A DNA stretch of 32,000 nucleotides, from positions 244,303-276,302 of the forward strand of contig CAZXEQ010000001.1 of the NCBI GenBank assembly GCA_964640155.1. The letters run 5' to 3'. This DNA is from an uncultured bacterium. GTDB taxonomy: Bacteria > Auribacterota > JACPWU01. Positions 1,180 through 14,164 of this stretch are shown one piece after another. The notes beneath the pieces are model-generated. The model searched no databases. It was not told the DNA's origin and saw only the letters and a list, made by a program, of their open reading frames with translations. Each line of letters opens with the position of its first letter. Within the stretch, counting starts at the first letter, position 1. The position numbers and the translations under genes are program-made.

Positions 1180-1259
1180 ATTTGAAGAGTCTAATGATTC
1201 ACACAGAAGGTTTAAAGGAAAAAATCAATCGTGTAAATAAAACTGTGCCCTTTATAGAT

Positions 1260-1346
1260 GCGGGTGACGCTTGGCGAGGCGCCCCATCGAGCGCAACTTT
1301 TGATGAGCACGATGGGGCTGACAAGCGGCAGGACCCGCCACTTTTT
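1260..1346 (+). repeat. GC-rich structured element, copy A (candidate cis-regulatory RNA or palindromic repeat), core GCGGGU-GAC-GCUUG...CAAGC-GGCAGG-ACCCGC followed by CAC-UUUUU
   Basis: Read directly: gcgggtgacgcttggcgaggcgccccatcgagcgcaacttttgatgagcacgatggggctgacaagcggcaggacccgccacttttt. Nested helices are GCGGGU/ACCCGC, GCUUG/CAAGC and GCCCCAUCG/CGAUGGGGC. It is a GC-rich island in AT-rich sequence, about 20 nt upstream of the ygfZ-like start codon. About 87% identical (hand alignment) to the reverse complement of 4128-4209. Confidence 0.6.
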
Positions 1347-1365
1347 CAAAGGACACACTTTTTTA

Positions 1366-2400
1366 ATGATCATGAGAAAATCTCCTCTACACTCACAGCA
1401 TGAATCCTTAAACGCTTCTTTCAAAGAAGAAAATGGATGGCTTTTGCCTGAATATTTCAGCTCGCCAGAGAAAGAATGGGAAGCTGTTCGAACTTCAATG
1501 GGTATATTAGATCTTAATCATGTCGGTAAAATTCTGATTCAAGGGCAAGATCGTGCTTCATTCCTACATAATATGGTCTCAAATGACATTAAATCACTTT
1601 TGCCCGGGAATTATCGCTATGCAACACTTTTAACTCCCAAAGGGAAAATGATTTCTGATTTACACATTTATGCTCTTGAAAATCATTTACTTATCGCTTT
1701 AAACGAAAATCTCGTGCAACCCGTTATCGATAAACTTTCTGCTTTTATTATTTCAGAAGATGTTCAAATCCAGGATGCCACTACTTCTTATGGGCTTCTA
1801 TCACTTCAAGGACCTCAGTCAACATCCTTTGCGCAAACAATTAATTTTGACTCCTTCAAAACCAAAATATTCCCTCACAGTCGCACTGGAGAAGAAGGAT
1901 ATGATGTATGGATCCCTACCGAAAATCTCATTCCATTATGGAAGCATCTAAAAACAGGAGAAAAAACAACACCGATTGGCATGCAAGCTTATCAAATTTT
2001 GAGAATAGAAGCAGGAATCCCCCTTTTTGGAGTTGATATGAATCAAAATACCATCCCCAATGAAGCCAATTTAGAAAATGCGATCAGTTGGAATAAAGGT
2101 TGTTATCCTGGCCAGGAAATAGTCGCCAGAATCAAATACCTTGGTGGAGTTAGAAAGCTTTTAAGTGGATTCATCCTTGAGAGAGAAAGAGTCCCCAACC
2201 CACAAAGTAAAATTTTTAGGGGCAATAAAGAAATTGGCTATATCACAAGCTCTACCCATTCATTGGCCTTAAAGAAACCTATCGCCTTAGGCATCATAAA
2301 AAAAACAGATACAGATGATGGGACTCAAATTGAAATCGAAGATGGAAATGAAAAAAGAATTGGGGAAATTACAACTCTTCCGTTTTACAAGAAGCTTTAG
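1366..2400 (+). CDS. ygfZ: YgfZ/COG0354-family folate-binding protein (aminomethyltransferase GcvT-like fold, Fe-S cluster maintenance family)
   Basis: GcvT-like N-terminal region (GILDLNHVGKILIQGQDRASFLHNMVSNDI) and the family signature KGCYPGQE near the C-terminus. The track ORF starts at 1258, but its first 36 codons lie in the GC-rich repeat element. I place the start at ATG 1366 (alternative 1372). Confidence 0.8.
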   Translation: MIMRKSPLHSQHESLNASFKEENGWLLPEYFSSPEKEWEAVRTSMGILDLNHVGKILIQGQDRASFLHNMVSNDIKSLLPGNYRYATLLTPKGKMISDLHIYALENHLLIALNENLVQPVIDKLSAFIISEDVQIQDATTSYGLLSLQGPQSTSFAQTINFDSFKTKIFPHSRTGEEGYDVWIPTENLIPLWKHLKTGEKTTPIGMQAYQILRIEAGIPLFGVDMNQNTIPNEANLENAISWNKGCYPGQEIVARIKYLGGVRKLLSGFILERERVPNPQSKIFRGNKEIGYITSSTHSLALKKPIALGIIKKTDTDDGTQIEIEDGNEKRIGEITTLPFYKKL

Positions 2401-2414
2401 AATCAAAAAACATT

Positions 2415-4073
2415 CTATATCTTTTTTGCCATTCGCTCACAGATCCTCTCCAAAGCCGGTGAATGATCTTTTGAATCAATTTGAATTTCAAGAAGTGAAA
2501 AGGTTTTCTTGTTGGCTAAAGCTTTTTGAAAAGCGTTCAAAAATTCTTTTTCTGTTTTGATATTAAAAGCCTCACCCCCACCAAAAATTTCAGGCAGTCG
2601 ATGATATTGCCAATTGGGGATATCATTATAAGGAAAATCTGCGTTTTCAAGAATGCGTTCTGTACCATAGCCTTGGTTATTAAAAAGAATTACAATTGGA
2701 TTAAGCTTCATTTTCAAAATGGTTGAAAGTTCCATCCCTGTCATCTGAAAAGCTCCATCCCCCACAATCACAATAGGTCTTAACTTTGGATTTGCCAGTT
2801 GGGCTCCCAAAGCAGCTGGAACAGAAAACCCCATGGATGTATAATAAGCTGGACTAAAAAATTCTGTTCTCTTATGCATTTTTAAATCTAATGCCCCAAA
2901 CAAAGCATCCCCAATATCGGCAATCACCACCATATTTTCATCTAAAAGTGTGTTCAAACACTCAAAAAGTCTATGCAAATGAATGGGATCATCTTCTTTT
3001 ATTTTAAACTCTACTTCTTTGAGACTTTTCTCTGACACAATAGTTTTTCTGGACTGAATAGGAGAAGCCACAAGTCCTTTCATAAAATCTTTGAATGTGA
3101 CTTCTTCAAAACGATGGTGACGAATCATAATTTTTTCTGATGTTGCATAAATAGAACGCGCTTGATCTAAATTAGCCGTAAAAATACCCAGATTAATGTC
3201 TGTCATAAAAGTCCCGAGCATGATCAGACAATCCGAGTCCTCCACCTTTTTTCGTACATCCTCTCGCCCAATCGCCCCTTCATACACACCTAAATAAAGA
3301 GGATGAACTTCACTGACCACAGATTTTCCAAGAGCAGTCGCCGCAACGGGTATTCTAAATTTTTCAACTAATTTCATTAACTCATCCTGCAATCCGAAAC
3401 GATGAACTTCTACATCTGCTAAAATCACAGGATGCTTGCTATGATTAATCATTGCAATGGCTTCATCTAAAACTTCCCGTAAAACAGCAGGATTGCTTTT
3501 TTCTTGTATGGGTTGATAAACATGATGTGCTGGACCTAAAACATCTGTCATATCTCTAGGAATCTCAATATAAACGGGACGTTTGTAACGAAGTGCTGTA
3601 TCCAAAACACGATCAATCTCTTGAAAAGCAATCAAAGGATCGCTCAAAACGGTGCTGGCCACTGTAAATTGATCAAAAATATCTTTTTGAGTGGTGAAAT
3701 CACGAATACGATGATGCAAAAGTGGATTTTTTTCTCTCTCTTTCATTCCCGGTGAACCACTGATTACGACCACAGGAGATTTTTCGGCATAAGCGCCCGC
3801 AACTGGATTTGCAACATTGAGTCCCCCTACACAATAAGTCACACACACGACACCTAATCCATTCATACGAGCATAGGCATCTGCAGCAAATCCAGCAGAC
3901 TCTTCACGGGTGGTGACTACAGGTAGAATTTTGCTATTCTGGGTAAGATTATAAAAGCGAAGGATATAATCACCCGGAATTCCAAAAATATGACGAATTC
4001 CAAGTGCATAAAGACGATTGAGAAGATATTGGCCAATGGAAATTTTGTTTTCCATAGATTTGTATACAATCAT
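2415..4073 (-). CDS. thiamine-diphosphate-dependent 2-keto-acid decarboxylase (indolepyruvate/phenylpyruvate/pyruvate decarboxylase family)
   Basis: 552 aa. N-terminal TPP pyrimidine-binding domain (IGQYLLNRLYALGIRHIFGIPGDYIL, TTREESAGFAADAYAR). C-terminal TPP-binding motif region (IVGDGAFQMT...LNPIVILFNNQGY). Substrate cannot be told from sequence. An alternative start is at Met7 (4055). Confidence 0.85.
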   Translation of the reverse strand: MIVYKSMENKISIGQYLLNRLYALGIRHIFGIPGDYILRFYNLTQNSKILPVVTTREESAGFAADAYARMNGLGVVCVTYCVGGLNVANPVAGAYAEKSPVVVISGSPGMKEREKNPLLHHRIRDFTTQKDIFDQFTVASTVLSDPLIAFQEIDRVLDTALRYKRPVYIEIPRDMTDVLGPAHHVYQPIQEKSNPAVLREVLDEAIAMINHSKHPVILADVEVHRFGLQDELMKLVEKFRIPVAATALGKSVVSEVHPLYLGVYEGAIGREDVRKKVEDSDCLIMLGTFMTDINLGIFTANLDQARSIYATSEKIMIRHHRFEEVTFKDFMKGLVASPIQSRKTIVSEKSLKEVEFKIKEDDPIHLHRLFECLNTLLDENMVVIADIGDALFGALDLKMHKRTEFFSPAYYTSMGFSVPAALGAQLANPKLRPIVIVGDGAFQMTGMELSTILKMKLNPIVILFNNQGYGTERILENADFPYNDIPNWQYHRLPEIFGGGEAFNIKTEKEFLNAFQKALANKKTFSLLEIQIDSKDHSPALERICERMAKKI

Positions 4074-4127
4074 TATATCAAAAAATTTCTATAAATAGTG
4101 TTGAAAAGAGAATGCTTTGAGAGAGTA

Positions 4128-4209
4128 GCGGGTCCTGCCGCTCGTCAGGCCCCACCGTGCTCACTAAAAGTTGCGCGCGGTGGGGCTCCCCGCCAAGTGT
4201 CACCCGCAT
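4128..4209 (-). repeat. GC-rich structured element, copy B (inverted relative to copy A), core GCGGGU-GAC-ACUUG...CGAGC-GGCAGG-ACCCGC on the minus strand
   Basis: The minus strand reads atgcgggtgacacttggcggggagccccaccgcgcgcaacttttagtgagcacggtggggcctgacgagcggcaggacccgctac. It has the same architecture as copy A. The inner helix is GCCCCACCG/CGGUGGGGC, against GCCCCAUCG/CGAUGGGGC in A (U-A replaced by C-G). It lies about 55 nt upstream of, and co-oriented with, the decarboxylase gene. Confidence 0.6.
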
Positions 4210-4232
4210 CTTCAGAAGAACATAACATCCAA

Positions 4233-4261
4233 TAGACAAACCCCTATCTGTACGCTAAAAT
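4233..4261 (+). promoter_or_regulatory. candidate sigma70-type promoter for nuoJ (TAGACA - 17 nt - TAAAAT)
   Basis: Hexamers read directly with a 17-nt spacer, about 40 nt upstream of the nuoJ ATG. Sequence pattern only, and AT-rich DNA produces many such matches. Confidence 0.3.
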
Positions 4262-4299
4262 ACGCGCAATTTTTATAAATAATAAAAGGCATCCCTTTC

Positions 4300-4800
4300 A
4301 TGTTAGAAACAATTCTTTTTTATTCATTTGCCATACTTGCAATCGCAACAGCCTTGCTTGTTATTTTTTCACGCCATCCTATCTACAGCGTGCTTTTTCT
4401 TGTTCTGACCATGTTTGCACTGGCATCCCTTTACATTATGCTCCATGCCTATTTTATAGCAGCCATTCAAATCATTGTTTATGCCGGAGCTATTCTTGTT
4501 CTTTTCCTTTTTGTGGTCATGCTTCTTAATTTAGATCAAGAAGGAGATGATTCTTTTCGTGTCGGACCCTCTAGATGGTTTGCTATTCCCTTAGGTTTAG
4601 CTTTTATTTGTGAACTTTATTTAGTTTTAAGCCATCTCATCCCTTCTAAAGCACAAGAAACCTTAAGCGAGGGAACAACTCAAAGTTTAGGATTCCTTCT
4701 TTTTTCAAAACATCTTTTACCTTTCGAAGTTATTTCGTTTCTTCTTCTATCCGCTATTTTAGGAACAACGGTATTGTCCAAGAGGAATTGGCAATCATGA
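4300..4800 (+). CDS. nuoJ: NADH-quinone oxidoreductase subunit J
   Basis: 166-aa hydrophobic protein with the typical NuoJ N-terminus ([33 protein letters not shown]...[21 protein letters not shown]). First gene of a J-K-L-M-N series. Confidence 0.9.
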
Positions 4801-5099
4801 TCCCACTCAATCATTATTTAATATTAAGTGGGGTTTTATTCGCCATCGGTGTGATGGGCGTTTTAATTCGCCGTAATGCGCTTATGATTCTTCTTTCTCT
4901 AGAAATCATGCTTAATGCAGCCAATTTATCTTTTGTTGCATTCTCAAGATTTTTAGGAAATTTAGAAGGTCAAATTTTTGTATTTTTTATTATTACCGTA
5001 GCCGCAGCAGAAGTCGCAGTAGGATTGGCTATTTTAATTGTACTTTTTAGAAACAAGCGATCTGTGGATACTAATCAGATTAAAATGCTTCGATGGTAA
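4797..5099 (+). CDS. nuoK: NADH-quinone oxidoreductase subunit K
   Basis: About 100 aa with three TM helices ([42 protein letters not shown]...[13 protein letters not shown]). I prefer ATG 4797, which overlaps the nuoJ stop as ATGA and follows AGAGGAA. The track start is TTG 4788. Confidence 0.9.
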
Positions 5100-6955
5100 C
5101 GAATATGGGTTGGATTATTTTATTTTCTCCTTTAATTGCATGCCTTGTGATCACACTTGTGACATTGCAAAACAAAAAACTAAGTGGTTTTATTGCCATC
5201 TTAGGACTTTTGATTTCTTTTATTTGCTCTGTGAGTGTTTTCTTACAAGCATTGCATTCCCCTGGCCAAGTCCTTGAATATAACTTAAATTGGATTTCTC
5301 TTTGGTCTCTTCAAATTGAATTTGGCATTCTCCTAGATCCCCTTTCTATTCTTATGCTTTTAATTGTGACAGGGATTGGAAGCGCTATTTTTATTTATTC
5401 TCTGGGGTATATGTCTGAAGATCGAAGTCAACCTCGCTACTTTGCTTCTTTAAGTCTTTTTGCATTTTCAATGTTGGGCATCATCCTTTCAAACAATTTA
5501 ATACAAACTTTCATTTTTTGGGAATTGGTGGGAGCTAGTTCTTATCTTTTGATTGGCTTTTGGTTTGAAAAAGATTCAGCTGCAGATGCTGGGAATAAAG
5601 CTTTCTTGGTCAATCGTGTGGGTGATTTTGGATTTGTGATTGGGATTTTAATGTGTTGGATGATTTCTGGACTTGGAACAACCCCAAAAACTTTTAATTT
5701 TTTAAAAATTGAGCATCTCTTTCCTCAACTCATCAATCAAGGACTTGTCTCTGCTGGATTATTGACACTTATCGGTCTTCTTATTTTCTGCGGAGTTCTT
5801 GGTAAATCGGCACAATTTCCCTTACATGTATGGCTCCCAGACGCCATGGAAGGCCCCACACCTGTGAGCGCCTTGATTCATGCAGCTACCATGGTCGCTG
5901 CTGGCATTTATCTTTTAGCTCGTCTTTTTTTTCTATTTGAAGTTTCACCTGAAGCAATGCAAATCATTTCCTACGTGGGTGCATTTACAAGTATTTTTGC
6001 AGCCAGTCTCGCTCTGGTTCAAAATGATATTAAACGCATTCTTGCTTATTCCACGCTTAGTCAATTAGGTCTCATGGTGATGGCGATGGGTTTGGGTGGC
6101 AAAACAGCAGGCATGTTTCATCTTGCAACACATGCCTTTTTCAAAGCACTTCTTTTCTTAGGAGCAGGAAGCATCATTCATGCACTTCACACACAAGATA
6201 TTTGGAACATGGGAAAACTCTTAAAGAAAATGCCCATTACCTCCATTACTTTCTTAATTGGGTCTTTAGCTCTTTGCGGTTTTTTCCCATTGAGTGGATT
6301 TTGGAGCAAAGATGAAATTTTGCTCACGGCTTATCATAAGAGTTTTTTTCTATATATGATTGCTTCTATCACGAGCTGGATGACTTCCTTTTATATGGCC
6401 AGGGCTTGCTTTGTTGCCATTCTAGCTCCCTCTAAAGCCCATCATCATGCCCATGAGTCAGGATGGATCATGAAAGGACCTCTGGTCTTTTTAACTTTGG
6501 GCGCTTTATTCTCTGGATTCATCGGTATTCCTCACTTCATCACGGGACCTGCTTCGCAAGGACATGTTTCCATTAATTGGAATATCGCTCTTATTTCTCA
6601 AATTTCGGCTCTCACAGCTTTAGTCTTCGCTTATTTTCTTTATATGATTCGAGATGGACAAGGAGCCAAAAAATTAAAAGTAATTTTTCATTTCCCCTAT
6701 CAAATTCTTCATAAGAAATATTTTATCGATGAAATTTATCAATGGATGGTGGATCGTGTTCAGCAAACCATCGCCATTCTCTGTAACCTTTTTGATCAAA
6801 ATGTAATTATTCGTTTTGGAGTAAATGGTACAGCACGCACGACAAGAGCTTGCGGAGAAATTTTAAGATTTTGTCAAACCGGTCGTGTTCAAACTTATGC
6901 ACTTGTCTTTTTTGCAGGAATCACCGTAATTATATTTGTGATGATATTGAGATAA
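5093..6955 (+). CDS. nuoL: NADH-quinone oxidoreductase subunit L
   Basis: 620-aa antiporter-like subunit. Conserved motifs [47 protein letters not shown] and the long C-terminal extension typical of NuoL. An alternative start is at 5105. Confidence 0.92.
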
Positions 6956-6963
6956 AGGAATTT

Positions 6964-8517
6964 ATGGGATTATTAACTTACATACTTCTTTCTCCCCTTT
7001 TGGGAATGTTGGCTATTCTTTTTATGCCTCGAGAGAATGAAAAATGGATTCGCCGTATTGCATCCATCGCAACCCTTGTGCCATTGACACTCTCTATTTT
7101 AGTCTGGGTAAAATATGATCGTATTTTAGGCGGATATCAATTCATTGACCATATTGCATGGCTTCCTTCTTTGGGCATTTCCTATCAAGTGGGCGTGGAT
7201 GGCATTGGAGTCGTAATGCTTCTTCTTCAAGGTTTCTGTGCCTTTACAGCTGTTCTAGTTTCTTACTCTATTAAAAACAGAGTTAAAGAATATTTCATCT
7301 TTTTCCTAGCCCTCATCGCCAGTATTTATGGAGTTTTCATGTCTCTGGATTTATTTTTCTTCTATTTCTTTTATGAAATGGCTGTCATCCCCATGTATCC
7401 CCTCATTGGAATTTGGGGTAGCACCAACAAAGAATATGCCACCATGAAATTGACGCTTTATATTTCAACCGGTGCTGTATTGGCTTTTGTCGCTCTTTTA
7501 GTTTTATATTTTTCTACAGGAATTTCCTCTTTTAATTTAATTGAATTGGAAAAACATTTAACTGCACATCCACTGAGTCCTCAGCTTCAAAGATTTCTCT
7601 TTCCTATTTTGATGGTGGGGTTTGGTGTCATCACTTCGCTTTGGCCTTTCCATACATGGTCTCCCATGGGTTATGCAGCAGCTCCTTCTGCGGTGAGTAT
7701 GCTTCATGCAGGTGTCCTTAAAAAGTTGGGCGCCTTTGCCATTATTCGAATTGCCATCAATCTTTTACCTGAGGGGGCCCAATATTGGTCCAATACTTTA
7801 GCAACCTTGGCTGTCATCAATATTATCTATTGCGGATGGGTCGCCATGGCTCAAAAAGATATGAAATTTATTGTCGGATATTCTAGTTGCAGTCATATGG
7901 GATATGTACTTTTAGGGATCTCCTGCTTGAATCCCAATGGGCTCAATGGTGCAGTGCTTCTTATATTCTCTCATGGCATTATGGCTGCCTTGACGTTTGC
8001 CCTGATTGGTTTTTGCTATGAGCAAACACATACCCGAATGGTTTCTGAACTAGGAGGTTTAGCTAAAAAACTCCCATTCATTGCGACTTGTTTTAGCATT
8101 GCAGCCATGGCCTCCAGTGGACTTCCTGGATTTGCTAATTTTGTTGCTGAAATCATGATTTTCTTAGGAGCCTGGGAAAGTAGACCTTTTTTTAGCATTC
8201 TTGCTATTTTTGGAATTGTCATCACAGCCACTTATCTTTTAAGAATGCTACGCCATGTCTTTTTTGGCCCCCTCAATCCTAAGTGGTCAGAGCTTCAAGA
8301 TGCAAAAACTATTTTTCAGAAATTACCTTTTAGCTTGTTGATTGCAGCTCTTATTCTGATTGGATTTGTGCCTTCTCTTCTCACACGCATTATTGATGAT
8401 TCGACTCATTTGATTTTTGAACGTTCATCAAAAACAGTAGAAAGAATTTTGGTTCAAAACAATTCAACAAACTCTTCTCCTGAAACAACAATCGCACCCG
8501 AGGGTTTATGGGTATAG
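6964..8517 (+). CDS. nuoM: NADH-quinone oxidoreductase subunit M
   Basis: Antiporter-like subunit (FFYFFYEMAVIPMYPLIGIWG, WPFHTWSPMGYAAAPSAVSMLHAGVLKKLG). The track ORF starts at 6850 inside nuoL. ATG 6964 follows the nuoL stop and an AAGGAA ribosome-binding site. Confidence 0.92.
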   Translation: MGLLTYILLSPLLGMLAILFMPRENEKWIRRIASIATLVPLTLSILVWVKYDRILGGYQFIDHIAWLPSLGISYQVGVDGIGVVMLLLQGFCAFTAVLVSYSIKNRVKEYFIFFLALIASIYGVFMSLDLFFFYFFYEMAVIPMYPLIGIWGSTNKEYATMKLTLYISTGAVLAFVALLVLYFSTGISSFNLIELEKHLTAHPLSPQLQRFLFPILMVGFGVITSLWPFHTWSPMGYAAAPSAVSMLHAGVLKKLGAFAIIRIAINLLPEGAQYWSNTLATLAVINIIYCGWVAMAQKDMKFIVGYSSCSHMGYVLLGISCLNPNGLNGAVLLIFSHGIMAALTFALIGFCYEQTHTRMVSELGGLAKKLPFIATCFSIAAMASSGLPGFANFVAEIMIFLGAWESRPFFSILAIFGIVITATYLLRMLRHVFFGPLNPKWSELQDAKTIFQKLPFSLLIAALILIGFVPSLLTRIIDDSTHLIFERSSKTVERILVQNNSTNSSPETTIAPEGLWV

Positions 8518-9935
8518 ATTTTTTAAACATCTTTTCTCATTTTAGAATTGAATTGGCCTTAAGTGCCGGAATACTCATTTTTCTTGTTTTGGATCTTTTC
8601 TTCAAAGAAAGGGGGAAACTGGGGAGTTGGTGCATCAGTTTGGTGAGCTTTCTTTTTGTCCTTCAAATTTTTAATTGGGGAAATGAAGGTGTTTTCTTTT
8701 CGGGGAGTTTTCTTCAGGATAAACTATCTCATCTCTTTAAAATCTTTTTTCTCCTCACAACATTTTTTATTTTAATCATGTCTCAAAATTATATTGAGCG
8801 ACTTGAGCGTGGCCAAGCCGAGTTCTATCTTCTAATTCTTTTGGCTGCTTTAGGCATGATTTTCATGGCGTCCGCTGGCAATTTTATTCTCCTCTTTGTT
8901 TCCTTAGAACTTATCACCGTTTCTTTCTACATTATGACCGCTTATTTAAGAACAGATCCTAAATCCACAGAAGCAGGTCTTAAATATTTGATTTTGGGAG
9001 CGCTTTCTTCAGGTTTTCTCCTTTATGGCATCAGTTTCATTTATGGCATCACCGGTAGTACCAATTTTGCTTCCATCACCGAATATTTATTACGGGAAGG
9101 ATTCTCTTCAAAAGGAGTTCTTTTCGGTTTCCTTCTGATTCTTTCAGGAATCGGATTTAAAATTGCTTCTGTCCCCTTTCAATTTTGGGTACCGGATGTC
9201 TACGAGGGAGCACCCACACCTGTCACAGCTTTTTTATCTGTAGGATCTAAAACAGCTGGCTTTTTGTTTTTCTTAAGAGTCTTGCATCTTTTCCCCCATT
9301 TTGAACATGAAAAAGCATTGCTTCTCAGCGTGCTTTCAGCAATGACATTGATTTATGGAAATTTAGGTGCTCTTCCTCAAAAGAATATTAAACGTTTACT
9401 TGGGTATTCCAGCATTGGACATGCAGGATATCTTTTAATGGGCTTAGCGTCAGGTTCACCCTTAGGAACAACTGGAGTTATTTACTATCTATTCTCTTAT
9501 CTTTTTACAAACCTGGGAGCCTTTCTTGTTGTTACTCTTGTTTCCAAAAATTCTGACACTGATGAAATAAGCCATTTCTCTGGCCTTTCTGTGCGATCTC
9601 CTCTTCTTGCAGCTGGAATGCTTATCGCACTCATGAGTTTAGCGGGGGTGCCTCCTCTTTCTGGTTTCTTTGGAAAATTTCTTTTAATCAGTTCTGTCGT
9701 TCAAAAAGGAATGATCTGGCTTGCCATTATTGGGGCTTTAAGTGTGGTCGTTTCTCTTTATTATTATCTGATGATCGTCAAACAAATGTATTTGGATAAA
9801 CCCATAGCAGATCATACGATTCCAATCAATCCCCTCACCAAAGCAGCTATCTATTTATCAATCTTCGGAATTATCTTCCTCGGAGTTTTCCAAGCACCAC
9901 TGATGAGATTGATTGCTACAACTATCAATCAATAA
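8508..9935 (+). CDS. nuoN: NADH-quinone oxidoreductase subunit N
   Basis: 475-aa antiporter-like subunit (SVPFQFWVPDVYEGAPTPVTAFLSVGSK, LLGYSSIGHAGYLLMG). Overlaps the nuoM stop by 10 nt. Last gene of the cluster. Confidence 0.92.
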   Translation: MGIDFLNIFSHFRIELALSAGILIFLVLDLFFKERGKLGSWCISLVSFLFVLQIFNWGNEGVFFSGSFLQDKLSHLFKIFFLLTTFFILIMSQNYIERLERGQAEFYLLILLAALGMIFMASAGNFILLFVSLELITVSFYIMTAYLRTDPKSTEAGLKYLILGALSSGFLLYGISFIYGITGSTNFASITEYLLREGFSSKGVLFGFLLILSGIGFKIASVPFQFWVPDVYEGAPTPVTAFLSVGSKTAGFLFFLRVLHLFPHFEHEKALLLSVLSAMTLIYGNLGALPQKNIKRLLGYSSIGHAGYLLMGLASGSPLGTTGVIYYLFSYLFTNLGAFLVVTLVSKNSDTDEISHFSGLSVRSPLLAAGMLIALMSLAGVPPLSGFFGKFLLISSVVQKGMIWLAIIGALSVVVSLYYYLMIVKQMYLDKPIADHTIPINPLTKAAIYLSIFGIIFLGVFQAPLMRLIATTINQ

Positions 9936-9957
9936 TTTCTACAAAATGTGTTGATTG

Positions 9958-10150
9958 ATTCGGGTGACCAACGAATTCTAGTCATGAATGATCGTACTCG
10001 AGTGAAAGTAACAAAAGAAAAGACACCCCATTCAGATTCATTCAAAGATGAATCAATCACGATTAGAAATCAAATTTCTTATGGGCGTTGGAATACGTAC
10101 GAGAGAAGAGAGTGAATGACTTTCGTTGGGCAGGACCCGATTCTTTTTGA
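9958..10150 (+). repeat. GC-rich structured element, copy C (long variant, about 190 nt) with identical junctions UCGGGU-GAC-CAACGA...UCGUUG-GGCAGG-ACCCGA followed by UUCUUUUU
   Basis: Read directly: tcgggtgac caacga ... tcgttg ggcagg acccga ttcttttt. The closing pair G:C of copies A/B is replaced by U:A. The second helix is a completely different but complementary sequence. The interior retains CCCCAU...AUGGG and a GAUUCAU/AUGAAUC hairpin. It fills the convergent gap between nuoN and leuD. Confidence 0.55.
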
Positions 10151-10181
10151 AGAGATACAACTACAACGAATAAATTAATTT

Positions 10182-13679: not shown

Positions 13680-13934
13680 CTACCTATAGATTTCTCTACG
13701 ATGTCCCACCCGATACACTCGGATAAGCTTCGAGGTATCAGCAATTGTATAAAGAATCCGATAATCTCCTCGACGAATACGATAACCCTCCTGGCCCGAC
13801 AATTTTTTTGATCCGATAGGACGAGGATTTTCTTGAAGCGAATCTAGAGCTAGCCAAACCTTTTTAACGATCTCCTCTGGAAGTTCGAAAATCTCTTTTT
13901 TGGCTTTTGCTTCAATTTGAATACGATATTTCAA
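13680..13934 (-). CDS. type II toxin, RelE/ParE superfamily
   Basis: 84 aa with the typical pattern (KKEIFELPEEIVKKVWLALDSLQENPRP...LSGQEGYRIRRGDYRILYTI...IRVYRVGHRREIY). Its start overlaps the upstream antitoxin stop by 4 nt. Confidence 0.85.
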   Translation of the reverse strand: MKYRIQIEAKAKKEIFELPEEIVKKVWLALDSLQENPRPIGSKKLSGQEGYRIRRGDYRILYTIADTSKLIRVYRVGHRREIYR

Positions 13935-14164
13935 ATTCGCCCCTTCTTCTTTAACTCTCTTTTAACATCATCCCAATTATAGAAAGTAGCGCCTTCCTTC
14001 TCGGCTTCTTGAAGATCGTACGCATCCAAAATATCTTCTAATTTTTCTCTCAAAGCAGATTCCACGACAAAATTTTTGCGTAAACCAAACCTTTTACAAA
14101 CCTGATCTAATGTTTTTGTCACATCTAGAGGAAGTTTAGTCGCAAGCACATGCAAAGCATGCAT
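13931..14164 (-). CDS. type II antitoxin (probable ribbon-helix-helix DNA-binding domain)
   Basis: 77-aa ORF immediately upstream of and overlapping the toxin gene, preceded by AAGGAG. It has a charged C-terminal half. The fold assignment is inference from size and context. Confidence 0.7.
   Translation of the reverse strand: MHALHVLATKLPLDVTKTLDQVCKRFGLRKNFVVESALREKLEDILDAYDLQEAEKEGATFYNWDDVKRELKKKGRI

Follow-up and report, generated by a model that had tools for sequence, protein, structure and literature searches.

Bacterial MITEs have been described as repeats of less than 200 bp with terminal inverted repeats (TIRs) and 5'-TA-3' termini, which form long stem-loops, can generate ORF fusions and occur in short and long forms (PMC2229807). 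Other palindromic repeats include the REPs, the largest superfamily of which is defined by GTAG tags (PMC3733652), as well as ERIC/IRU and the QMITE of Coxiella, which may influence mRNA and the evolution of proteins or sRNAs (PMC5896051). Here we describe an inverted pair of GC-rich structured elements in a 32,000-nucleotide stretch of DNA (the window), and we propose, with a probability of roughly 0.85, that they are copies of a new family of non-autonomous, TA-flanked MITEs of approximately 125–130 bp. The element is shorter than 300 bp without coding capacity, has terminal inverted repeats, occurs in dispersed copies and is found at orthologous sites that are either filled or empty; its agreement with the published description of MITEs (PMC2229807) was counted in favor of this reading. 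A palindromic repeat of the REP, ERIC or MITE type was one of three readings offered by the original prediction, and it is the one sustained by the multiple copies, in both orientations and beside unrelated neighbors, and by the differences in presence and orientation at orthologous sites.

The inverted pair in the window

Copy A occupies positions 1236–1363 of the plus strand (128 nt; covariance model (CM) score 149 bits) and consists of a 5' AT-rich arm (1236–1259), a GC-rich core (1260–1338) and a 3' AT-rich arm (1339–1363), flanked by TA at 1234–1235 and at 1364–1365. Within the core, P1 (1260–1265/1333–1338) is followed by the junction GAC, P2 (1269–1273/1322–1326) and P3 (1281–1289/1310–1318), with the loop at 1290–1309. 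Copy B lies on the minus strand at 4098–4222 (125 nt; CM score 136 bits), with its core at 4128–4207 and TA at 4223–4224 and 4096–4097. The original prediction had delimited units of about 85 nt, which are extended to these limits by the AT-rich inverted arms, and the CAC-UUUUU tail of copy A, which it had considered terminator-like and possibly an attenuator, is part of the 3' arm.

Other features of the predicted pair were confirmed. Pairwise alignment of core A (plus strand) with core B (minus strand) revealed reverse complements that are about 87–90% identical, with about 10 differences including one indel, close to the 11 counted by hand, and the pair was recovered independently as 1256–1318/4149–4211 (87% complementary) and 1314–1362/4104–4152 (82%). 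Minimum free energy (MFE) folds of the cores, at −41.8 kcal/mol for copy A (z −3.6) and −44.1 kcal/mol for copy B (z −2.5), reproduced the nested P1 (GCGGGU/ACCCGC), P2 and 9-bp P3 in both, and the compensatory change noted in P3 is real, from A-U to G-C. When the arms of copy A were included (1234–1368), the DNA fold reached −33.2 kcal/mol (z −5.7). The elements are indeed sharp GC-rich islands in AT-rich DNA, with a GC content of 0.58–0.61 in 100-nt windows over them vs 0.38 for the entire stretch, and the window contains two occurrences of the loop pattern GCGCAACTTTTNNTGAGCAC, where 0.03 would be expected.

The original prediction had recognized no riboswitch or ribozyme core. The window and 15 related loci were scanned with Rfam 15 at gathering thresholds, and no family was assigned to the element on any copy. 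A partial DicF match to copy A, obtained with Rfam at E ≤ 10 (E 0.034), was taken as chance, and resemblances to hammerhead, HDV-like, attC and retron sequences and to glycine, ZTP and THF riboswitches were dropped, as they lacked core motifs or context and had no Rfam match. The scan at gathering thresholds found a c-di-AMP riboswitch in one related locus (L020), which has no relation to the element.

A probable decayed third copy (10064–10165, plus strand; nhmmer E 0.002) is positioned between the convergent nuoN and leuD-like genes. What remains is the 3' junction together with half of P1 and the 3' arm (10129–10159), the GC-rich center having eroded. The motif GGCAGGACCCG occurs three times against 0.13 expected. 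A reading of 10129–10159 as a plain terminator accounts for this segment less well than its derivation from the 3' end of the decayed copy.

Family members and orthologous sites

The family is known from three genomes. In addition to the two intact copies and the decayed copy of the window, at least 14 intact copies were found on 11 contigs of MAG GCA_041906865.1 (L001), the closest relative, which is syntenic and has a GcvT 79% identical to that of the window (59% in a second relative, L002). A genome scan with the exact loop gave 11 matches in a single MAG, the other seven being chance matches in unrelated taxa, and one further copy was added by nhmmer and the CM. A longer variant of 208 nt (CM score 77 bits, E 1e-18) was identified in L058, a distant relative; it shares its ends with the short form and differs in the center. 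The short (125–130 nt) and long (208 nt) forms have the conserved arm, P1 and junctions in common, and neither form contains an autonomous ORF. Searches beyond these genomes added no copy: a metagenome scan with a pattern of the 5' arm, which was too GC-rich, returned 35 loci, all of them chance matches in high-GC DNA; scans of viral contigs gave 0 and 6 matches, none fitting the CM; and BLASTN against plasmids gave no match. Neither the window nor the surroundings of any copy were found to encode a transposase, and no transposase with matching ends was identified there, which counts against the MITE reading.

The neighbors are unrelated in function (they include ComEC, P-type ATPase, A2M, PBP1, YdjM, PrpD, AstA, HAD, ThyX, a permease and a histidine kinase), and about seven copies are co-oriented with the adjacent gene and about seven antisense, several being located downstream of genes. 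One copy is inserted in frame within an ORF for alpha-2-macroglobulin (A2M) that exceeds 1533 aa; it is situated between the bMG6 and bait-region domains, and the only homolog found shows a 39-aa gap across the stretch that holds the element-encoded segment.

The stems are maintained in the alignment of 14 copies, where 94.9% of the cells are paired vs 32–44% in slid controls. Five pairs show compensatory changes and 14 cells carry double changes, and none of 500 shuffles attained the observed score. The arms (about 20–28 nt) are AT-rich and complementary within copies, and whole elements form one hairpin (z −5.7 to −8.1). Two limits apply to these data: the loop looks more invariant than it is, because a loop pattern served to retrieve the copies, and structural covariation is not specific to riboswitches, because the hairpins of MITEs and REPs covary too. 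Variation between copies is greater in the AT-rich arms than in the core, which counts against the MITE reading, as it would be unusual if the arms alone were the transposase site.

The gcvT-like gene lacks the element upstream in all five syntenic relatives (L001, L002, L056, L058 and L060); in L001, for example, its upstream region is 88 nt long. Upstream of the decarboxylase gene, L001 carries the element exactly inverted relative to the window, with identical flanks (GGATGT-TA ... TA-TTTATAG), and the element is absent from L002 and also from L060. Thus both sites are polymorphic for insertion, site A being filled or empty and site B filled, filled in the inverse orientation (L001) or empty (L002). 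In L056, a distant relative, these two positions are occupied by GC-rich sequences that likewise form an inverted pair but are different from the element. The gene order and orientation of the convergent pair are the same in six syntenic relatives, whether the repeats are present or not.

TA dinucleotides bracket both window copies and most of the others, although several ends are TG or fuzzy, and a single TA stands at the aligned position of the empty site in L002. These ends were read by eye and from filled/empty alignments, as automated detection is defeated by 6–9 non-complementary nucleotides by P1 and by variable A-runs. Because TA is palindromic and equals its own reverse complement, a TA duplication is inseparable from the outermost base pair of the TIRs. 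No target-site duplication longer than TA was evident at the copies examined.

Proposed mechanism, alternatives and possible consequences for the flanking genes

These observations are consistent with a MITE that would insert at TA dinucleotides, with duplication of the TA, and would be mobilized in trans by a transposase encoded elsewhere. This enzyme might recognize conserved terminal stretches of about 35 nt, made up of the arm, P1 and the GAC / GRCAGG junctions, and by analogy with RUP and IS630 the first candidate would be a TA-targeting cut-and-paste enzyme. The hairpin may be retained because only structure-competent master copies propagate. The two window copies would then reflect insertion into the divergent-promoter regions on either side of the convergent pair, both of which would be permissive. 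The exact in-place inversion between the window and L001 speaks against this reading insofar as a simple one-off insertion leaves it unexplained.

The genes of the pair are a GcvT-family (ygfZ-like) gene for a folate-binding aminomethyltransferase (1372–2400, plus strand; P0001, 342 aa, 100% identity) with an alternative start at 1366, and a gene for a TPP-dependent 2-keto-acid decarboxylase (2415–4055, minus strand). The start of the latter is probably at 4055 (MENKISIG), as suggested by the corresponding 546-aa gene of a relative, rather than at the first ATG of the ORF (4073). An ORF at 1258–2400, which runs in frame through copy A, is probably an artefact. The original prediction had placed the ends of the elements 20–55 nt before the start codons, whereas copy A ends only 2 nt, namely a TA, from the ATG at 1366. 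Copy A would thus have been inserted at a TA abutting the start codon of the gcvT-like gene, so that it is either transcribed in the leader of this gene or itself supplies the promoter. Its location in the 5' UTR is probably an accident of insertion, and it may alter expression of the gene incidentally.

Copy B, by contrast, probably lies upstream of both divergent promoters. A promoter-like site for nuoJ (TAGACA-17-TAAAAT; 4233–4261, plus strand) begins 9 nt past the outer end of copy B (4222), and similar motifs, TAGACAAA and TAAAATACGC, precede nuoJ in L058. Between copy B and the decarboxylase start, an extended −10-like sequence, TGATATAAT (4072–4080, minus strand), has counterparts in L001 (TGATACAAT) and L002 (TGTTAGAAT). 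If this motif is the decarboxylase promoter, copy B would be located upstream of it and outside the mRNA.

Among the other explanations, a giant REP/REPIN-like repeat or an IS200/IS605-type PATE, in which the hairpin is mobilized as single-stranded DNA, is unlikely. Such a hairpin would be recognized in its folded form by a HUH tyrosine transposase (RAYT/TnpA) and cleaved by a GTAG-like tag without target duplication. Indeed, GTAG or GTGG directly precedes the base of P1 on the complementary strand in 11 of 14 copies (e.g., GTAGCGGGTCC), the stems covary, the CM distinguishes the two strands (130–150 vs 17–37 bits), and the lack of an evident target-site duplication beyond TA would be expected. 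Wobble on one strand, with 11 G.T vs 6 A.C mismatches, also resembles what has been reported for REPs; however, a single alignment position contributes seven of the 11 G.T cells, possibly through one inherited change, and an assignment of the strand from wobble pairs was rejected as too weak and dominated by one column. Several features argue against mobilization as single-stranded DNA: the element is three to six times the length of REPs (20–40 nt), arms of about 20–25 AT-rich nucleotides lie outside the tag, which is therefore internal rather than terminal, both window copies have TA at either end where L002, with its empty site, shows a single TA, and the DNA examined did not reveal a RAYT gene.

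It is very unlikely that the copies are independently transcribed small structured RNAs, that is, sRNA genes spread by duplication. The conserved, strand-specific structure with its conserved unpaired nucleotides would suit such genes, as would the −10-like TATAGAT/TATAAAT that ends the 5' arm and the YAC and U-rich run that follow P1 in most copies. Nevertheless, transcription directed by the −10-like hexamer would begin within the 5' strand of P1, and a conserved −35 is lacking. The two arms mirror each other, as TIRs should, one copy is traversed by an intact ORF, and inversion in situ together with insertion at start codons points to transposition and not to gene duplication.

A new cis-regulatory leader RNA, a riboswitch or attenuator common to the gcvT-like and decarboxylase genes, is highly improbable. 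This proposal drew on the orientation of both window copies, each facing and co-oriented with its adjacent gene, and it could also invoke the covariation-supported structure with conserved unpaired junctions, the position of copy A within the gcvT-like leader, and the different inverted pair at the two positions in L056. It did not withstand the comparison of relatives, because neither position nor orientation is conserved at the orthologous genes: the gcvT-side element is missing from every syntenic relative, and the decarboxylase-side element is inverted in one and absent from two others. Nor is the set of genes coherent, as 12 other copies adjoin functionally unrelated genes; half of these copies have the antisense orientation, several follow the gene rather than precede it, and one interrupts a coding sequence. 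The probable location of copy B upstream of the decarboxylase promoter and the absence of an Rfam match weigh in the same direction.

Finally, the suggestion that recombination between the two copies inverts a 2.9-kb segment and so switches gene orientation is extremely improbable: inverted repeats of about 125 bp that are 82–87% complementary bracket both genes and make homologous recombination physically possible, but the single gene order and orientation in six relatives, with or without repeats, indicate that the arrangement in the window is ancestral, genes for an invertase or recombinase were not found in the window, each gene of a convergent pair would keep its promoter if the pair were inverted together with the upstream regions that bracket it, and the repeats belong to a genome-wide family.

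Within the MITE reading, it is improbable that the GC-rich core, with its conserved bulges (GAC, GGCGGGG, GGCAGG) and loop, is a portable structured RNA or ssDNA module that has a function of its own. Such a core may serve as a protein-binding site, a processing site or a ‘portable leader’ placed directly against start codons; in the last case, unrelated genes, namely the gcvT-like gene and possibly the decarboxylase gene, would come under common post-transcriptional control. Domestication of the core may fit both the different inverted pair of L056 and the exact in-place inversion in L001.

More generally, a candidate that looked like a riboswitch, with nested helices and compensatory changes upstream of two genes, has been corrected to a selfish repeat, and it was comparative synteny, not covariation alone, that separated the two. 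The proposed MITE family is previously undescribed, and its hosts are uncultivated PVC/Chlamydiae-like bacteria. The element can create spurious N-terminal extensions, as in the ORF at 1258–2400, can insert in frame into proteins, sits in what is probably at least one 5' UTR, and may contribute to assembly breaks in MAGs; the CM can be used for masking or annotating it. For researchers of transposition mechanisms, the finding of an exactly inverted copy in place at an orthologous TA site may hold modest interest.

Comparison with known repeat families

The Correia/NEMIS elements of Neisseria resemble the present family: they are 100–155 bp long, with TIRs of about 24 bp and TA termini, and they duplicate TA, as proposed for the present element, they give rise to long-hairpin transcripts, they come in a short and a long form distinguished by an internal segment, they insert near gene starts, and their cognate transposase is likewise not known (PMC2229807). 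However, the core described here is far more GC-rich, with three helices and conserved bulges in an AT-rich genome, and the likeness is one of description, a sequence relationship not being evident. REPs and REPINs (RAYT) share with it GC-rich imperfect palindromes that are mostly extragenic, covarying stems, G.T pairs and GTAG/GTRG by the stem (PMC3733652), but they are 20–40 nt long with a terminal tag, whereas the present hairpin spans about 80 nt (about 128 nt with arms), its tag lies inside the AT-rich TIR arms and it is flanked by TA. The palindromic RPE of Rickettsia (105–146 bp) inhabits an AT-rich genome of intracellular type and is found both in intergenic regions and in frame in conserved protein genes (PMC2229807); it belongs to a different phylum, the present family yielded a single in-frame insertion in 15 copies, and the resemblance is again by description, with no evident sequence relationship. 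ERIC/IRU and the Coxiella QMITE are MITE-type imperfect palindromes of about 100–170 bp within transcripts (PMC5896051); their hosts are unrelated and this likeness, too, is descriptive. The best model for the mechanism proposed here is RUP of Streptococcus pneumoniae, a TA-targeting MITE that has TIRs, measures about 107 bp and is presumably mobilized in trans (PMC2229807); it depends on IS630-Spn1 and, unlike the present element, has a known matching IS630.

The inverted pair and its conserved structure

The two longest inverted repeats of the window, recovered by an independent repeat search, lie at 1256-1318/4149-4211 (87% complementarity) and 1314-1362/4104-4152 (82%), indicating that the inverted pair of the original prediction is beyond chance. 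Pairwise alignment of the two cores (copy A, 1260-1338; copy B, 4128-4207) revealed ~10 differences, one indel among them, close to the ~11 counted previously. The predicted folds (copy A, -41.8 kcal/mol, z -3.6; copy B, -44.1 kcal/mol, z -2.5) contain the same nested helices in both copies, but the reverse strands fold about as strongly, and folding alone is thus no guide to the functional strand. The description as GC-rich islands in AT-rich DNA was likewise borne out, with 58-61% GC over the elements (100-nt windows) versus 38% across the whole window. No match at gathering thresholds was obtained in Rfam 15, in agreement with the earlier failure to recognise a known riboswitch or ribozyme core, and the sole match at E<=10, a partial DicF, was read as chance. 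The surrounding genes encode a GcvT-family folate-binding protein (1372-2400, plus strand) and, on the minus strand and ending at 2415, a TPP-dependent decarboxylase; nuoJ-N and then leuD/leuC-like genes follow downstream of this pair.

Although the structured GC-rich core stands as predicted, the unit is longer, as each core is flanked on both sides by mutually inverted AT-rich arms of ~20-28 nt. An approximate consensus is (TA)-AAAGTGTGTCCTTTATAGAT-[core]-YACTTTTTCAAAGGACACACTTT-(TA), with termini of the pattern TA-(A)AAGTGTGTCCTTT...GCGGGTGAC. Copy A thus spans 1236-1363 (+), with flanking TA at 1234-1235 and 1364-1365, and copy B spans 4222-4098 (minus strand), with flanking TA at 4224-4223 and 4097-4096. 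Complete elements form one long hairpin, with DNA-fold z values of -5.7 for copy A and of -8.1 and -6.2 for two copies elsewhere (L006 and L008, respectively).

Comparison of 14 copies revealed that 94.9% of the cells in 24 proposed pairs are standard pairs and that five pairs (14 cells) carry changes on both sides. None of 500 shuffles matched the observed covariation score or paired fraction, and pairing fell to 32-44% when partners were slid by 1-3 columns, showing that the helices originally proposed, with their compensatory changes, are real and maintained. Covarying stems have also been reported for REP families (PMC3733652), so that covariation is no argument for a riboswitch. On the strand shown, G.T wobbles outnumber A.C mismatches (11 versus 6), an excess that does not settle strand-specific function because 7 of the 11 G.T derive from one column. 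The apparent invariance of the loop arises in part from ascertainment by the loop search pattern; the only copy found without that pattern differs at two loop positions, one of the changes being compensatory (57-74, G-C to A-U).

Orthologous sites, dispersed copies and rival explanations

Close relatives of the gcvT-like protein were found in PVC/Chlamydiae-like MAGs, and several syntenic contigs were compared. In the closest relative (L001, from MAG GCA_041906865.1; 79% protein identity), the 88-nt region upstream of the gcvT-like gene lacks the element, and an element upstream of the decarboxylase gene is reverse-complemented relative to that gene. A second relative (L002, 59% identity) lacks the element at both sites, and the gcvT-like upstream region is likewise without it in the more distant syntenic contigs L056, L058 and L060. 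Three-way alignment gave a clean filled/empty pattern upstream of the gcvT-like gene. Between the decarboxylase gene and nuoJ, the window and L001 carry the element in exactly opposite orientations within the identical flanks GGATGT-TA and TA-TTTATAG, and L002 is empty. This inversion covers the whole element, asymmetric arms included (window 4098-4222 versus L001:12736-12881), and these two copies have common arms that are absent from the other retrieved copies. A subfamily may have used the one TA again, or the element may have been excised and re-inserted; an assembly artefact is less likely. The aligned position in L002 holds one TA, and a TA also directly precedes the start codon of its gcvT-like gene. 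As read from these alignments, the single TA in L002 versus TA...TA around the copies would fit a TA target duplication; this falls short of proof since TA is self-complementary and the ends of several copies are TG or unclear. In addition, the spacer of the convergent gcvT-like/decarboxylase pair varies, being empty in the window and L001. It encodes an ankyrin/HEAT-repeat protein in L002 and a methyltransferase in L056, L058 and L060, the last of which also has an RNase_H_2-domain protein there.

Searching one genome per species with the loop motif GCGCAACTTTTNNTGAGCAC gave 18 loci, 11 of which are from the MAG of L001; the other seven, from unrelated taxa and missing the rest of the element, look like chance matches. 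An HMM and a covariance model made from the retrieved copies added one copy in the same MAG (L020:4285-4424). The fourteen short copies scored 108-150 bits with the covariance model and their reverse strands just 17-37 bits, and the orientation of the element is therefore well defined. Copies are co-oriented with and antisense to neighbouring genes about equally, and some are found 3' of a gene or between two genes transcribed in the same direction. No common function links the neighbours, which include ComEC, a P-type ATPase, alpha-2-macroglobulin, PBP1, YdjM, DUF2490, an acyl-CoA synthetase-type enzyme, an AAA ATPase, AstA, a HAD hydrolase, ThyX, an amino-acid permease, a histidine kinase and PrpD. 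In L020, the element copy at 1376-1517 is immediately followed by a c-di-AMP riboswitch (RF00379, 56 bits; 1565-1753, plus strand) 5' of an amino-acid permease gene. In this fragmented MAG (JAYRIK01), several copies are positioned ~100-700 nt from a contig end (L006, L007, L013, L014 and L019), which suggests that the element contributes to assembly breaks; if so, the true copy number is underestimated. A third, degenerate copy is probably present in the window at ~10064-10165 (+), where nuoN and the leuD-like gene converge. It has kept GGCAGGACCCG and a 3' arm closely resembling that of the L014 copy; its intact part (10129-10159) comprises the arm, half of P1 and the 3' junction, and erosion has left AT-rich sequence in place of the GC-rich centre. 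This intact part resembles an intrinsic terminator hairpin with a T-run 3' of nuoN. The element has so far been found in three related uncultivated genomes.

The dispersal of copies in both orientations beside unrelated genes, together with filled, empty and inverted orthologous sites, supports a MITE/REP-like palindromic repeat, one of the readings originally put forward. The main rival, in which an HUH transposase would move a REP/REPIN-like hairpin as single-stranded DNA, could draw on a GTAG/GTGG motif that in 11 of 14 copies adjoins P1 (complementary strand); however, this tag is internal to the arms and the element is much longer than REPs, making such an origin improbable. A cis-regulatory leader is expected to stay at the same place and in the same direction with respect to the orthologous gene. 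Neither place nor direction is kept at the orthologous gcvT-like and decarboxylase genes, where the element is absent or inverted, and with copies adjoining unrelated genes the proposal of a shared leader RNA or riboswitch is not supported. Flipping of the 2.9-kb two-gene segment via the inverted pair is likewise unsupported, given the identical gene orientation in all six relatives and the lack of a recombinase encoded nearby.

Consequences for flanking genes and promoters

Only TA separates the outer end of copy A from the ATG at 1366, so that the gcvT-like transcript either starts upstream and reads the element in sense or starts inside it. Judged from this arrangement, copy A would be a physical leader element through accident of insertion. 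Copy A also supplies an ATG (1258) in frame with the gcvT-like gene, yielding a 380-aa ORF (1258-2400, plus strand) whose 38-aa N-terminal extension is probably spurious, and this ATG is an annotation hazard. An outer element end meets a start codon via TA|ATG or TA-TG three times, namely at copy A, at L020:4285-4424, which precedes a gene for a histidine kinase, and at an element in L056.

The -35 hexamer of a promoter-like site for nuoJ, TAGACA-17-TAAAAT (4233-4261), is 9 nt away from copy B, and similar motifs, TAGACAAA and TAAAATACGC, occur upstream of nuoJ in L058. A block 5' of nuoJ, TAGACAAAC…TAAAATACGCGCAA (4233-4275, plus strand), is retained in L001, L002 and L058 and is the probable location of the nuoJ promoter; this promoter appears to be separate from the remaining nuo genes (nuoJ-N alone are here). 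On the decarboxylase side, an extended -10-like TGATATAAT is located downstream of copy B and recurs in the same place, with variations, in L001 and L002; copy B is probably outside the decarboxylase mRNA. Both promoter assignments were inferred from consensus.

Variant forms and affinity to known mobile elements

A 208-nt variant was observed 5' of nuoJ in an intergenic region of L058 (13968-14175, plus strand; GCA_016196885.1, GcvT 51%). Its arms, P1 and GAC and GACAGG junctions are as in the short form, its P2 is fully covaried (GCCCAAC/GTTGGGC), and ~85 nt of unrelated, branched sequence replace the ~15-nt loop centre. The ~35-nt conserved ends around a variable middle look like transposase-recognised termini. 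L056 carries a different inverted GC-rich pair at the same two positions, directly 5' of the gcvT-like gene (9824-10000, plus strand) and 5' of an operon including the decarboxylase gene (13861-14014, minus strand). Its members have 43 nt in common at one end (84%) and a GGAGGGGTTA motif at the other, with TA at each end and termini of the ATAAC…GTTAT type. This pair may be a second MITE family, or may hint that elements of this sort are attracted to, or retained at, these two positions.

Neither the window nor the surroundings of any retrieved copy encode a transposase. According to the review by Delihas (PMC2229807), bacterial MITEs are <200 bp, with TIRs, 5'-TA-3' termini and long stem-loop transcripts; in-frame gene fusions are occasional, as for RPE, and short and long forms exist, as for Correia (107 versus 155 bp). 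As the features observed here match these, the element is best taken as a non-autonomous transposon mobilised in trans, for which the TA ends would make an IS630/mariner-like cut-and-paste enzyme the first candidate. The family is new, and its kind is already known. The likeness to RPE lies in the L018 copy (6380-6519, plus strand), which is in frame within an intact alpha-2-macroglobulin ORF (3401-7999, >1533 aa), with the bMG6 domain on one side and the bait-region domain on the other. It contributes ~40 aa (…NTGDARRGGPSSATFAEHDGADERQDPP…) missing from the sole homologue retrieved (33% identity), which has 39 gap positions opposite that stretch. Similarly, the short form and the 208-nt L058 variant recall the two Correia forms, and the putative IS630/mariner-type mobilisation resembles that of RUP, for which it was itself inferred.
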